The notes: generated from the sequence alone by a model not told the origin. DNA of 64,000 nt from Escherichia coli (GCF_003334815.1 NZ_QOWO01000001.1), one strand, 5' to 3'; shown: positions 48,429-52,841, counted from the first letter of the stretch. A program made the numbers and translations.

Positions 48429-50702
48429 TTATGGTGTTTGCGCGCCATCTATCATCATGCTTCGCTGCCTTACTGCTTGTTGCTGTCGTAGTTGCTGTAT
48501 CACCTTCCGGGCTAATGCATCTTCATTCATACCAGGTTCTGCCTTCACGCTGATGTGGTACTGGTCGTTGCTATGCACCGTAGTGCCACCAGAGCGGTTG
48601 GCCAGTGCAGGTGACGGCAGGGCAGCACCAGAGGCAGTGGTTGCTGCTGGCTGCTGTACATCGTCGCGGAATGGTGCGGTAAAGAAATCTTTGGTTTTCT
48701 GCCACGCACCACCAGCAACATCAGACACGGCGTTTTTAAACTCCAGTGCCTTGTTGGTCAGGTTGCCAATGTTGTCAGAAACCCAAATGATCTTATCAAT
48801 CAGGAACGTGATCGGTGCGGTCACAAGCTCGATGCCAGCCGCCAGGGTCTTACCGAACGTCATCCCCATTTTACCGGCCTTATCCAGTTCCTCGCCGCTG
48901 TATTTGACCGGTTCGGTCAGTGACGTGAACCAGTTGAAAGCCGTCTTAACCGCAGCGCCCACGCCATCAATGACGGGCTTCAATGGCCCCATGCGCTCAT
49001 ACAGGCGATGCAGGGCATCGCTAAGCGGTTCCAGCCCGGATTTGATACCTTCACCCACGCCACCAAAAAAAGCCTTCACACCAGCCCAATGGCGGTAAAT
49101 CTGATAACCTGCCAGCGCCAGGCCAGCTACGGCAGCACCAACGCCAGTGGAAATGAACGCCGCACCGATGGCGCGCACGCCGGTAGCCACCGCAGGCAGG
49201 CCACGAGTGCTGGCCAGAACGGCGGATGCGTTCATGCGGGCAAACAGGCTGGACACGTTCAGCAATCCGCCTTTCAGGAACGTGAACGCAAAGCCAGCGG
49301 CGAACGTCGCCACACGCAGTGCCACCAGTGCACTGGAACCAATAACCACTGCTTTGGTCACGGTAGGGTATTCGCGCGCCAGTTCGGCAACCTTGCCGAT
49401 AACCGGGCCAACGGTAGCCAGAACGCCGTTGAATGCTGGCAGCAGCACTGTGCCGATCGTGACGCCCAGGTTAGACACACGGTTGTTGAAAATCTTAAGC
49501 TGCGCCGACGTTTTGGCGGTGGCTGCCTCATATTCAGCCTGCATAGAACCGGCATATTTGGTCTTGTCTTTGACCATATCCAGATTCTTTTGGTACGTAT
49601 CAAGCTGTGTCAGCATTGGTGCGATAGCGCCAATCGATTCCTTACCAAACAGTTGCGAAAGCGTTGCCGCCTGCATGTGTTTTGGCAGCTTGCTGATCTT
49701 GGACAGGATGACGCGGATTGTTTCATCGGCGTTCAGTTGCATTGATTTTGCAACCTGCTTGGATGTGAAGCCAAGCTGTTTAAACGCTTCACGCTGTGAC
49801 TTCGTGGCGGATGCGCCAGCGGTCAGGGATAGCAGCAGGTTTTTAATACCGGTGGCCGCAATCTCATTCTGCACGCCCATACCGCGCAGCGTTGCACCCA
49901 TCGCAGCGATAGAACCGGAAGCTGCACCAGCGACGCTGCCAAGTGGCCCGATGCGCTGCGTGATTTCCAGGATGTCTTTGGCTGATGCGGCGGTGTTGTT
50001 GCCCAGGTAGTTGATCTTGTCGGCCAGAACGTTCATCTGGTCCTGCGTCATCCCGAAGGCGGCGCGCATCTCTGCCATTGCCTGGCCTGCCTGGTCGGCG
50101 CTGACGTCAAAAGCCACACCCATTTTGATGGCCGATTCAGCAAACTTGGTTAGTTCGCTGGTGGCGATGCCTGATTGAGCACCAGCGGCAACAATCTTGC
50201 CGATTTCGTTGGCTGCCATCGGCATTTTGGTTGACATATCCTGGATAGCCTGGCCCATCTTAACCAGGCCGTCAGGGGTTTCGAAGTTGGCAACCTTGCG
50301 GATATCTGCCAGCGTATCTTCAAAATCCATAGCCTGTTTGATCGGTACAGCTACCGTTGCGCCAAGTGCGACAGTCCCCAGGATTCCTTCTTTGTAGCCT
50401 TGACGCTTCGCCAGGTTGCGTTCGCGGGCATCCTCCACGCGTTTCAGGCGTTCGGTGGCAGAACGAAGGCGTTCAACCTGCCCGACAACCGTTTGATAGC
50501 GGTCCTTCATGCGGGAGAATATCGCGCTATCCTGGCCATAACGCTTCATTGCTTCATTTAACTGGCGCTGTTCGCGCGACAGCTTAGAGATTGCGCTACC
50601 AATCTCGACGGTATTTTTCTTTACAGTTCCAAATGCACCACGAAGGCTGCCGGAAACGGCCCCACCAATCGTGATTGTTGCATTTAACTTCTTGTTGGCC
50701 AT
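48429..50702 (-). CDS. Phage tail tape-measure protein (TP901-family core-like)
   Basis: 757 aa. It has an N-terminal coiled coil and a region resembling the TMP core (DIRKVANFETPDG...IGKIVAAGAQSG...). It also has central Gly/Ala-rich hydrophobic segments and an overall Ala/Gly/Thr-rich helical composition typical of TMPs. Confidence 0.8.
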   Translation of the reverse strand: MANKKLNATITIGGAVSGSLRGAFGTVKKNTVEIGSAISKLSREQRQLNEAMKRYGQDSAIFSRMKDRYQTVVGQVERLRSATERLKRVEDARERNLAKRQGYKEGILGTVALGATVAVPIKQAMDFEDTLADIRKVANFETPDGLVKMGQAIQDMSTKMPMAANEIGKIVAAGAQSGIATSELTKFAESAIKMGVAFDVSADQAGQAMAEMRAAFGMTQDQMNVLADKINYLGNNTAASAKDILEITQRIGPLGSVAGAASGSIAAMGATLRGMGVQNEIAATGIKNLLLSLTAGASATKSQREAFKQLGFTSKQVAKSMQLNADETIRVILSKISKLPKHMQAATLSQLFGKESIGAIAPMLTQLDTYQKNLDMVKDKTKYAGSMQAEYEAATAKTSAQLKIFNNRVSNLGVTIGTVLLPAFNGVLATVGPVIGKVAELAREYPTVTKAVVIGSSALVALRVATFAAGFAFTFLKGGLLNVSSLFARMNASAVLASTRGLPAVATGVRAIGAAFISTGVGAAVAGLALAGYQIYRHWAGVKAFFGGVGEGIKSGLEPLSDALHRLYERMGPLKPVIDGVGAAVKTAFNWFTSLTEPVKYSGEELDKAGKMGMTFGKTLAAGIELVTAPITFLIDKIIWVSDNIGNLTNKALEFKNAVSDVAGGAWQKTKDFFTAPFRDDVQQPAATTASGAALPSPALANRSGGTTVHSNDQYHISVKAEPGMNEDALARKVIQQLRQQQAVRQRSMMIDGAQTP

Positions 50703-50723
50703 AATAATTGTGCTCTCAAGGAA

Positions 50724-50930
50724 TTAATTAAGTAAATTTTCTGCAAGGGTGTGTTCACCGATTGCCCGCAAGGCGGCAGCGGCCAGTTGCAGGGCGCATT
50801 CGGTGCGGTAGTCTCGCTGTTTCTGCATTTCCTCCGCTGTGTTGCACGCCAGAACTTTTGGCAGGACCATATCCACCAGTTCAGGCCAGGGGTTTGTTCC
50901 TTCCGGTTTTGTGTGAATACGGTCCAGCAT
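50724..50930 (-). CDS. Hypothetical 68-aa protein immediately upstream of the tape-measure gene
   Basis: ATG preceded by AAGGGGG at about 6 nt. It is in the same reading frame as the upstream orf105, separated by a TAA stop codon plus three further codons. Confidence 0.55.
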   Translation of the reverse strand: MLDRIHTKPEGTNPWPELVDMVLPKVLACNTAEEMQKQRDYRTECALQLAAAALRAIGEHTLAENLLN

Positions 50931-50939
50931 GGTGCCCCC

Positions 50940-51257
50940 TTATGCACTCCGTACCAGGATAGCGCCGCGCTTCACCGCCTGGCGTTTGGCCCGTTCACCG
51001 GAACTGATGCGGCTGGATGGTTGCCACTTCGTGCGTCCCAGGGCGGATGCGTGGCTTTCCGCTTCGTCACGCATGATGCGGCCCGCTTCATCGGTCATGT
51101 GTTCGAATGCGTTTAAACGGTTGCGAAGGCTTGCCAGCAGGTCGGCTGCTTCGTAGCTGATAGGGTTTTTCTCTGAAATGGTTTGGAAACGCTTTGTTTC
51201 GCTAAGGATCAAACGCGCTTCTTCTTTCATTGATTCGTACAGGTCATGTTTTTTCAT
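50940..51257 (-). CDS. Hypothetical 105-aa helical protein with a basic C-terminus (possible tail-assembly chaperone analogue)
   Basis: Start placed at the internal ATG (MKKHDLYESMKEEARL...). The 44-aa ORF-track extension is low-complexity and was dropped. No strong SD, so the start is uncertain. Confidence 0.45.
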   Translation of the reverse strand: MKKHDLYESMKEEARLILSETKRFQTISEKNPISYEAADLLASLRNRLNAFEHMTDEAGRIMRDEAESHASALGRTKWQPSSRISSGERAKRQAVKRGAILVRSA

Positions 51258-51636: not shown

Positions 51637-51639
51637 GGC

Positions 51640-51954
51640 TTAGTACCTGTTCATCCAGCTTTCGCGCTTCTGTTTCGGGCGCTGCTCGCGGTAGTGACTG
51701 CGCACCAGGGAAGCGAGGTAATTCACGGCGCGTTCAATCTGGTACTGCTTAAGCTCCGGGTAAGCCTTGCGAATCCATTTTTCAGCAGCGTCATCGCTGT
51801 AGATGAATCCTGACCAGCCAACCGGCTGCACTACGATGCGCGGTGTGTTTTCATCACCGTGGCGCACATACATGGCCACACCTTCGATAGCTGCCAGGAT
51901 TTCACCCGGCAGGGCAGCGCGCTCCGCTGCCGCTTTTTTGCTGCCCCACCACAT
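51640..51954 (-). CDS. Hypothetical 104-aa protein translationally coupled to the capsid-like gene
   Basis: ATG at 51954 lies 2 nt after the capsid-like gene's TGA, with GGAAGG 7 nt upstream. The ORF-track TTG start at 51960 is rejected. Confidence 0.55.
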   Translation of the reverse strand: MWWGSKKAAAERAALPGEILAAIEGVAMYVRHGDENTPRIVVQPVGWSGFIYSDDAAEKWIRKAYPELKQYQIERAVNYLASLVRSHYREQRPKQKRESWMNRY

Positions 51955-51956
51955 GA

Positions 51957-52841
51957 TCAAGCCTTCCAGAACATAGTTGAGTCAGGCACCAGTGCGGATG
52001 CGTTCACCCACACAACGATTTCAACGGCACCATTCAGCACGCGGCGGGCGGTGACGCGGATTTCATCATCCAGGGCAACGGCTGCATTGCCGAAAGCGCC
52101 AATGATTGTGCTGGAAGTCTGGCCGCTGATTTCAGCGCGTACACCGTAGGCACGCAGAACGCCGTCTTGCAGTTCCAGGCCGGTGCAATCACCGCCAACA
52201 ATGGCTTTAACTTCATCAAAGCGCAGGTTTTTGGCTGCAATCTTCTGCGCCACTGCGGTGAATGACGGGCTGGCCAGCGTTTCCGCTGCGGTTTCCAGGT
52301 GGTTCAGCAGTACGAAATCAGCCAGGTCAGCAATTCCGCGTTCAATGGCGGTGTTGACCACTTCCAGCGTGGTATCGTCTGCGAAGTCGTGTTTCATCTG
52401 CTTGCGGCTAAGGGTGTAGCCCACGCCGTAAGCCGGTGCGTTGTTGTGGTTGAACGCTGATACCAGGTAAGGCAGGCCGCTCATGGTGATTTCTTCGCCG
52501 TCAGCCACTTTGGCGAACGCACCAGGGCGAACGACAACGAAGCGGTCAGCCACTTCGCGGCCAGTCGTTGCGCCGGTGTTGCCAGTCGGAGGCGTGGTCA
52601 TCGGGCCAGGGATGCGGATGATTTCAGCGCCTGCCTGTGCCACCAGTGAACGTTCAGCCAGAACAGCGTTGAAGGTGGTCTGCTTGCCGCCTTTCGGGGT
52701 CAGCACGTCATTCATGGACAGGTAGCGAACTGCTGCAGGTTCCACAGGGATGAATTGAGTAATGTCACCGTTGCCATCAGTGCGAATGTGGCCGCCCTGG
52801 TGGTTCAACGCGTCGTTGATAAGTTGAGATAAAACGTTCAT
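51957..52841 (-). CDS. HK97-fold major capsid protein-like protein (294 aa, no delta/scaffold domain)
   Basis: ATG at 52841 with GGAG 8 nt upstream. The segment YTLSRKQMKHDFADDTTLEVVNTAIERGIADLADFVLLNHL parallels the HK97 gp5 spine-helix region (ASRQVMDDAPMLQSYINNRLMYGLALKEEGQLL). The N-arm-like VRYLSMNDVL parallels LTIRDLL. Assignment is by eye only. Confidence 0.5.
   Translation of the reverse strand: MNVLSQLINDALNHQGGHIRTDGNGDITQFIPVEPAAVRYLSMNDVLTPKGGKQTTFNAVLAERSLVAQAGAEIIRIPGPMTTPPTGNTGATTGREVADRFVVVRPGAFAKVADGEEITMSGLPYLVSAFNHNNAPAYGVGYTLSRKQMKHDFADDTTLEVVNTAIERGIADLADFVLLNHLETAAETLASPSFTAVAQKIAAKNLRFDEVKAIVGGDCTGLELQDGVLRAYGVRAEISGQTSSTIIGAFGNAAVALDDEIRVTARRVLNGAVEIVVWVNASALVPDSTMFWKA

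Follow-up and report, generated by a model that had tools for sequence, protein, structure and literature searches.

A proposed satellite of Jilinvirus-type myoviruses in Escherichia coli with one capsid gene and one tape-measure gene

The stretch of Escherichia coli DNA analysed here (64,000 nucleotides, referred to as the window, on which all coordinates are counted unless another locus is named) contains a 9,346-bp island between fis and yhdJ, in which a single tight minus-strand operon (48429-52841) runs from a capsid-like gene through four small open reading frames (ORFs) to the gene of a tail tape-measure protein (TMP). The island was found to be a satellite-like element whose only recognisable virion genes encode one capsid protein and one TMP, as had been claimed in an earlier reading of the sequence alone (the sequence-only reading). 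The operon is probably the late (morphogenesis) module of a satellite of the Gram-negative phage-inducible chromosomal island (PICI) type, which would exploit Jilinvirus-type myoviruses (Iiscvirinae) and be packaged in the manner proposed below. The identity of the helper is the new part of the finding; a lone capsid gene or a satellite TMP is not new in itself.

These observations provide a concrete, testable helper-satellite pair in E. coli. The satellite occurs in the chromosome as an island and also in the form of small natural plasmids, and Jilinvirus isolates are available, among them HeidiAbel of the public BASEL collection. If the proposal is true, satellite-encoded TMPs and chimeric tails would be no peculiarity of Vibrio, the element would constitute a minimal system for how a foreign capsid protein uses the portal and terminase of another virus, and a class of cryptic ~9-kb "non-mobilizable" plasmids of E. 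coli, Salmonella and Proteus would be phage-transmitted elements. The satellite, which occurs in about 1% of complete E. coli genomes, may also serve as a natural anti-Jilinvirus defence.

Capsid and tape-measure genes of the operon

The last gene of the operon (48429-50702, minus strand) encodes a 757-aa protein that matches Pfam PF10145 (PhageMin_Tail, 3.5e-39), TIGR01760 of NCBIfam (5e-71) and phrog_28 (3e-129), and on these sequence matches its assignment as a TMP is solid. Over the full length, its identity to the TMPs of Jilinviruses is 58-60%, falling to about 40% for the TMPs of related Pseudomonas phages, and it evolves with a dN/dS of 0.20-0.38. In the sequence-only reading this protein was proposed to change the length of the tail; however, the satellite TMPs measure 757-763 aa and those of the closest helpers, ECOO78 and HeidiAbel, 781-785 aa. 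Because this difference lies within 3-4%, or about one ring of the tail tube, re-sizing of the tail by the satellite TMP is unlikely.

The TMP gene is a mosaic. The copy in the window was compared with those of an island sharing the same backbone (L021, 580-2868) and of a plasmid form (L014, 3364-5655), and two alleles were distinguished, A (the window and a second E. coli fis island, L020) and B (L021 and the plasmids). In alignment columns 121-480 the two alleles share 25-50% identity and in columns 481-720, the C-terminal third, 87-100%, with 85-100% identity in the genes adjoining the TMP. This pattern in the alignment indicates that the core of the TMP is a cassette exchanged by recombination within the gene. 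The nearest phage relatives of both alleles are TMPs of Iiscvirinae. That satellites hardly differing elsewhere have exchanged this core suggests an arms race, or else a fit to different helpers.

The first gene of the operon (51957-52841, minus strand; 294 aa from ATG) encodes a homologue of HK97-fold major capsid proteins without a delta domain, an assignment made by predicted fold. No model of Pfam, PHROG or NCBIfam matches this protein, and neither a tblastn search of phage records nor a profile search of PDB sequences gave a match. Of the checks proposed with the sequence-only reading, the library searches supported the TMP and missed the capsid protein, for which the predicted HK97 fold speaks. 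The family of the 294-aa protein comprises 274 clusters at 50% identity. Several homologues, and 15 of 38 sampled members of the family, are fused to a Peptidase_S78 prohead protease, which also marks the protein as a capsid protein. When the family was aligned with the head protein of HeidiAbel by hhalign, the match was confined to the protease domain of the fused relatives (7e-42), and the satellite capsid domain matched the HeidiAbel capsid domain with a probability of 9%.

Between these two genes lie four small ORFs, all on the minus strand, which gave no matches in Pfam, PHROGs, NCBIfam, PADLOC or the PDB profile search. The first, orf104 (51640-51954, 104 aa), follows the capsid gene after a 2-nt gap and is co-conserved with it. 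After 3 nt comes orf54 (51472-51636, 54 aa), which is 72% conserved in Serratia relatives and, from a strand-helix-helix pattern recognised by eye, reads as a small DNA-binding protein of ribbon-helix-helix (RHH) type. The third, orf105 (50940-51257, 105 aa; called by RefSeq as 149 aa, to 51389), is 41% conserved in Serratia relatives and ends in a conserved basic C-terminus (SxGERxKRxxVKRGAILVR), and a similar C-terminal motif is found in a 74-aa ORF of Pseudomonas. Its sequence looks helical by eye, which weakly suggests a candidate scaffold. Directly upstream of the TMP gene lies orf68 (50724-50930, 68 aa), which is 88-99% conserved in E. coli and Salmonella relatives with a dN/dS of about 0.3 and shows no likeness by sequence to LysM or gpX; neither orf68 nor orf105 matched models of tail assembly chaperones or gpX. 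This list of ORFs agrees with the layout described in the sequence-only reading, including the short gaps and the TMP gene ending about 80 bp from the left attachment site (78 bp by our count).

The absence of other virion genes, also claimed beforehand, was borne out by library scans of all island ORFs (Pfam, PHROG and NCBIfam), among which no terminase, portal, protease, adaptor, tube, sheath, baseplate or lysis family was recognised. Two isolated virion genes, and the resemblance of the TMP and the primase to Jilinvirus proteins, are also what a deleted prophage might leave behind by chance. Such an origin is extremely improbable and was rejected. The island is bounded by precise repeats of AATACGGCATGAACTAA, the left core being the last 17 bp of fis (48335-48351) and the right one an exact 17-bp direct copy (57681-57697). 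The capsid gene, the TMP gene, orf104, orf105 and orf68 have dN/dS values of 0.13-0.38 against relatives, so that all five operon genes tested are under purifying selection. The same architecture recurs in 47-66 E. coli genomes, on circular 9-kb plasmids and in other genera. A recently deleted full prophage had been named in the sequence-only reading as the case to look for; no truncated genes were seen, and no syntenic full-length prophage occurs at fis in the loci examined or in the published survey (PMC10111431).

A putative helper-type cos site and other links to Jilinvirus phages

A near-exact nucleotide match of the island to phages lies outside the operon, between the replication origin and the capsid gene, in a GC-rich block of 73 bp (53148-53220, minus strand) that is 97-98.6% identical to the region upstream of terS, the gene of the terminase small subunit (TerS), in HeidiAbel, ECO1230-10 and ep3. 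In a blastn comparison of the island with HeidiAbel (Bas97) the block matched at 97% (E 2e-29) between the spanin gene and terS, and the TMP and primase genes gave only weak matches (69-76% nucleotide identity). Among 50,697 phage records, 12 match the stretch, and all of them are Jilinviruses or close relatives that carry it in the intergenic stretch before terS (ECO1230-10 and ep3 at 98.6%, then HeidiAbel, PT1, Alux-21, ECOO78, Arya and Serratia MQ-4). The linear records of two of these phages begin or end inside the shared stretch, that of ECOO78 having GGGGCATTGGTCC at both ends and that of Arya starting with TGCGGGGGCATTGGTCC, and the terminase of a helper-type prophage is lambda GpA-like. 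For these two reasons, 53148-53220 is read as a putative copy of the helper cos site, with GGGGCATTGGTCC at 53170-53182 as the likely cohesive-end sequence.

Some relatives carry a terminase gene of their own. In a variant that is found as a fis island in about 18 E. coli genomes (such as L020) and on a Salmonella plasmid (L015), a 159-aa TerS is encoded between orf54 and orf105 (at 9576-10055 of L020 and 2319-2798 of L015). It matches phrog_57 (4e-26) and is named "terminase small subunit" in one RefSeq record and "AbiEi antitoxin domain" in the other. These TerS-bearing variants keep the left half of cos and have a different right half, and their TerS is 53% identical to that of the helper in the C-terminal part only, which fits an altered DNA-recognition domain on a conserved terminase-binding domain.

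Further links to the same phages were found in replication and late-gene expression. The VapE-type primase/helicase (53842-55530, minus strand; 562 aa; PF05272 4.5e-48, phrog_2249 1e-82) is 65% identical to Jilinvirus primases over its C-terminal 395 aa, and the primase of the plasmid forms is 61% identical over the full length. The motif TGACAAACCCCAAGAAGA occurs five times in HeidiAbel (L016: 2429, 5168, 9470, 13926 and 39196) and at the same positions in ECOO78 (L018), always in late-gene orientation. Four of the copies precede late operons, and the fifth falls within the protease-scaffold-capsid fusion gene, where the protease part borders on the scaffold part. The placement of the motif suggests a late promoter and, for the internal copy, a start that would give a protease-less scaffold-capsid product. 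In the TerS-type, Serratia and (in a variant form) Pseudomonas satellites the motif precedes the capsid gene by 70-150 bp, and an element embedded in a Salmonella prophage has a copy about 730 bp upstream of its protease-capsid gene. Serratia relatives encode a late activator 64% identical to that of the phage, and Pseudomonas relatives, and only these, a gpX baseplate-hub protein 46% identical to that of the phage.

Jilinviruses are myoviruses of 41-44 kb (the helper genomes considered here measure 40.6-43.7 kb) that behave as virulent phages though some keep lysogeny genes (PMC11990801, the BASEL paper). No DNA of Jilinvirus terL (terminase large subunit, TerL) or portal genes was found in 5,426 complete E. 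coli genomes, and a second copy of cos was found in none of them. With no resident Jilinvirus in these genomes, the helper must therefore arrive by infection.

Unit length, relatives and the mode of transfer

The capsid-to-TMP module also occurs on circular ~9-kb plasmids, where protein identity is 85-100% except for the TMP. These plasmids have no integrase and no alpA and carry a toprim-VapE primase of 730-771 aa; examples are E. coli pSCU-121-2 (9,138 bp), a Salmonella plasmid of 9,316 bp and plasmids of Proteus and of a second E. coli strain. Many circularly permuted assembly contigs of 9.0-9.1 kb with terminal overlaps carry the module as well. A scan of IMG/VR gave three contigs, of which two came from isolate genomes and one, of 9.6 kb, from a metagenome, and which are not proof of encapsidation. 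The plasmid CP077066.1 (17,382 bp), from an E. coli of pig, has two capsid-protein matches and about twice the unit length, and may be a dimer or cointegrate of two satellites.

In other genera the late module is varied. The pairing of capsid protein and TMP, whose conservation was left as a check by the sequence-only reading, is kept down to 39% capsid identity (E. coli to Pseudomonas) and breaks down in Serratia, where fis islands (L005-L007) have the same capsid module with a late activator homologue in the place of the TMP; cargo (a SocA_Panacea protein, for example) separates their primase gene from the capsid gene. In Salmonella (L002 3346-14536, also L003), a 9,166-bp relative flanked by a 16-bp repeat (ATCCCCAAACAAACAG) is inserted in a Jilinvirus-like prophage, where it interrupts the protease-scaffold-capsid fusion gene. 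This relative encodes an integrase, an AAA_25 protein, a protease-capsid fusion (P0094) and a short TMP-like protein of 521 aa.

The length of the unit is nearly constant in all these forms. It amounts to 9,346 bp in the window, 9,479 and 9,750 bp in other E. coli fis islands, 9,577 and 9,739 bp in Serratia, 9,844 bp in Pseudomonas, 9,166 bp in the embedded Salmonella relative and 8,933-9,316 bp in plasmids and circular contigs, that is, 8.9-9.85 kb despite differences in the integrase module (~1.9 kb), the TMP (2.3 kb), TerS and cargo. Since packaging of concatemers into heads of helper size imposes no such limit, the constant length favours a small head that holds one unit. The capsid protein, conserved yet highly diverged, adds to this in favour of small capsids made by the satellite.

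The following course of events is proposed. Infection by a Jilinvirus-type phage would lead to excision and replication of the island, after which the TerS and TerL of the helper would cut at the mimicked cos and package one unit of 9-10 kb. The diverged HK97-fold capsid protein of the satellite would assemble on the portal of the helper into a small shell with room for one unit, possibly with orf105 as its scaffold; a rough volume estimate leads us to guess at a shell of T=3 or T=4. The satellite TMP would take the place of the helper TMP in contractile tails otherwise built by the helper and unchanged in length. Such chimeric tails would make the satellite independent of the helper TMP, or immune to whatever acts on it, and by analogy with PLEs and their helper ICP1 they are the most likely mode of action of the TMP.

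Several points weigh against this proposal. Induction, packaging, capsid size and incorporation of the TMP are all inferred, and the assignment of cos derives from sequence position and the ends of database records instead of mapped termini (a literature search turned up no published termini for ECOO78). The satellite capsid protein has no similarity to that of the helper detectable by tblastn or hhalign, and it is therefore unproven that it fits the portal, protease and connectors of the helper. No scaffold, protease or tail chaperone is recognisable in the island, the leader of the capsid operon is devoid of the late motif TGACAAACCCCAAGAAGA that relatives carry there, and the TMP is not essential to the family, given the Serratia relatives that lack it.

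A further objection comes from the model Gram-negative PICI, in which the capsid gene was reported to be dispensable for transfer and DNA to be packaged as phage-length concatemers (PMC10111431). Capture of late genes is common in fis PICIs (PMC10111431), and at 9.35 kb per unit four copies of the window island would add up to 37 kb, about 90% of the genome of a 41-kb helper. Both the capsid gene and the TMP gene could accordingly be captured passengers, unneeded for transfer, in an element that travels as concatemers of about four units in ordinary helper capsids and tails, and the TMP-less Serratia islands would suit this explanation too. We hold it to be unlikely: the capsid gene is intact, under purifying selection and retained from E. 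coli to Pseudomonas at 39% identity, the distance of its product from every phage capsid protein is much greater than expected after a recent capture, and concatemer packaging would not constrain elements with very different genes to 8.9-9.85 kb.

Somewhat less likely still is that the operon works as a defence device, its diverged capsid protein and TMP acting as dominant-negative subunits or decoys that poison the assembly of Jilinvirus heads and tails and so protect the host population, with transfer being secondary. In its favour, the island would encounter the helper only through infection, near-identical satellites have hypervariable TMP cores, and interference of satellites with tail assembly is known for Rta (PMC12987554) and for Tai (PMC11364771). 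A cos identical to that of the helper, TerS variants with a matching cos half, and a constant length nevertheless point to real encapsidation; both proteins look full-length and complete, and PADLOC gave no match. Moreover, interference does not preclude transfer in known satellites, and packaging of single units in small heads with chimeric tails remains the probable explanation.

Comparison with known satellites and the island backbone

The element had been presented in the sequence-only reading as a possibly undescribed architecture. That view is supported in part only: its backbone is that of the published fis PICIs, and both capsid genes and TMPs have been published in satellites. The decisive features, namely the helper-type cos site, the helper itself and the plasmid forms, were missed in the sequence-only reading. 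An integrase gene stands at one end with alpA next to it, both oriented alike, the 3' end of fis carries the block TACGGCATGAACTAA, the island has its own primase with an origin downstream, and its late zone contains few helper-type genes and no lysis or full virion module; the size of 9,346 bp is just below the stated range of 10-20 kb. For a dependence of induction, replication and transfer on a helper phage, the putative cos site gives indirect support. With fis PICIs, of which EcCICFT073 is the model, the island thus shares the order of its genes, the place of the origin behind the primase gene, and the att block (the att repeat agrees with the published identity block TACGGCATGAACTAA), and lone capsid genes occur in 21 of 29 reference Gram-negative PICIs (PMC10111431). 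The window island differs in its helpers, which would be Jilinvirus myoviruses and not lambdoid phages, in a capsid family without a Pfam model, in its TMP (PMC10111431 mentions no tape-measure genes), in a late module found also on integrase-free plasmids, and in a constant length that suggests packaging of monomers.

Satellite TMPs have been published since 2025 for PLEs, with experimental evidence, for some cf-PICIs in an extended-data figure (both PMC12987554) and for EPIPs (PMC12822802). In the PLE/ICP1 system of Vibrio cholerae (Mathur, Boyd et al., Nature 2026, PMC12987554), virions of the satellite selectively incorporate the TMP that the satellite encodes, which makes their tails chimeric; PLE11 thereby evades the inhibitor of the helper TMP that it produces itself. 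As in the window island, the TMP is homologous to that of the helper, which is contractile-tailed and is met by infection and not as a resident prophage, and PLE11 carries BhuB much as Pseudomonas relatives of the island have a baseplate-hub gene beside the TMP. Backbone and host are unrelated, however, and no tail chaperone, hub or Rta-like gene was recognised in the window island. PLEs remodel helper capsids with the scaffold TcaP, whereas the window island encodes a capsid protein, and TMP identity to the helper is 59% for the window island and 20% for PLE11.

The EPIPs of Mycolicibacterium are likewise small (11 kb) satellites with a capsid protein and a TMP, but are set apart by their description as actinobacterial elements with a serine integrase, terS, a scaffold, head-tail adaptors and tails longer than those of the helper (PMC12822802). 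With HE-PICIs (PMC10111431) the embedded Salmonella relative shares its site in the helper capsid gene, the most frequent target of that group; it differs in residing in a Jilinvirus-like myovirus and not in a lambdoid prophage, and the window island itself is chromosomal, at fis.

Two other assignments were rejected. The element is not a P4-like satellite, given that the 19-mer of the P2/P4 cos is absent even with 3 mismatches and that sid, psu and delta have no PHROG matches. Capsid-forming PICIs (cf-PICIs) encode a complete head and packaging module with protease, portal, connectors and terminase, and of the head and packaging families only the capsid protein was recognised among the island ORFs. 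A parallel to a lone capsid protein is Ccm of SaPIbov5, a satellite capsid homologue whose sequence clearly resembles that of the capsid protein of its helper, and which reportedly co-assembles with the latter and gives small capsids. Both are HK97-fold capsid homologues (by prediction in the window) in cos satellites without terS, but the window protein has no similarity to Jilinvirus capsid proteins detectable by tblastn, and the hhalign probability is the 9% given above.

In the literature searched, no description was found of a satellite family tied to Jilinvirus or Iiscvirinae, of a minimal capsid-plus-TMP late module in a 9-kb unit, of the presence of such a module on integrase-free plasmids, or of exchange of a TMP cassette. 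Tentatively, and with less confidence than for the course of events proposed above, these elements may form a distinct family of Iiscvirinae satellites with integrative and plasmid forms, which would build T=3 or T=4 heads from their own capsid protein on a borrowed portal and insert their own TMP into borrowed contractile tails, the TMP core cassette tracking counter-measures of helper or host. If this is true, the heads would be among the smallest tailed-phage heads known, and chimeric-tail assembly would extend from Vibrio PLEs to Enterobacterales and Pseudomonas, combined with a satellite-made capsid.

The remaining genes of the island are all encoded on the minus strand. The tyrosine integrase (56278-57513, 411 aa from ATG, with the ORF extending to 57585) matches PF00589, PF13356 and phrog_1 and is so named in RefSeq. 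It is followed by an AlpA-family regulator or excisionase (55804-55983, 59 aa), assigned by RefSeq to the AlpA family and with a weak match to TIGR01764; the homologues of this regulator in relatives match PF05930. The position of orf93 (55514-55795) between alpA and the primase gene is kept in relatives. A small protein is encoded 3' of the primase gene (orf74, 53608-53832), with 47-90% conservation at that place in the plasmid forms, and a terminator-like hairpin (53566-53583) follows it. In the window island type and in the plasmids represented by L014, the leader of the capsid operon (52842-53147, minus strand) is an unrelated AT-rich stretch of 306 bp in place of the late-promoter motif. 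A sigma-70 scan gave nothing in the leader and no enrichment overall, the one k-mer it shares with the phage, a 14-mer also present in the phage primase gene, is probably due to chance, and an Rfam scan of the island gave no matches. Of the 5,426 complete E. coli genomes, 47 contain 80% or more of the island.

The replication origin was placed at 53236-53540 from the sequence and from counts of its iterons, of which there are about 11 (GGTGTCAT/ATGACACC) in the island and none in the phage. A plus-strand ORF of 109 aa annotated by RefSeq as "hypothetical protein" (53276-53605) spans these iterons, and its repetitive sequence of VIGVIGVIS type derives from them, so that it is probably not a gene.

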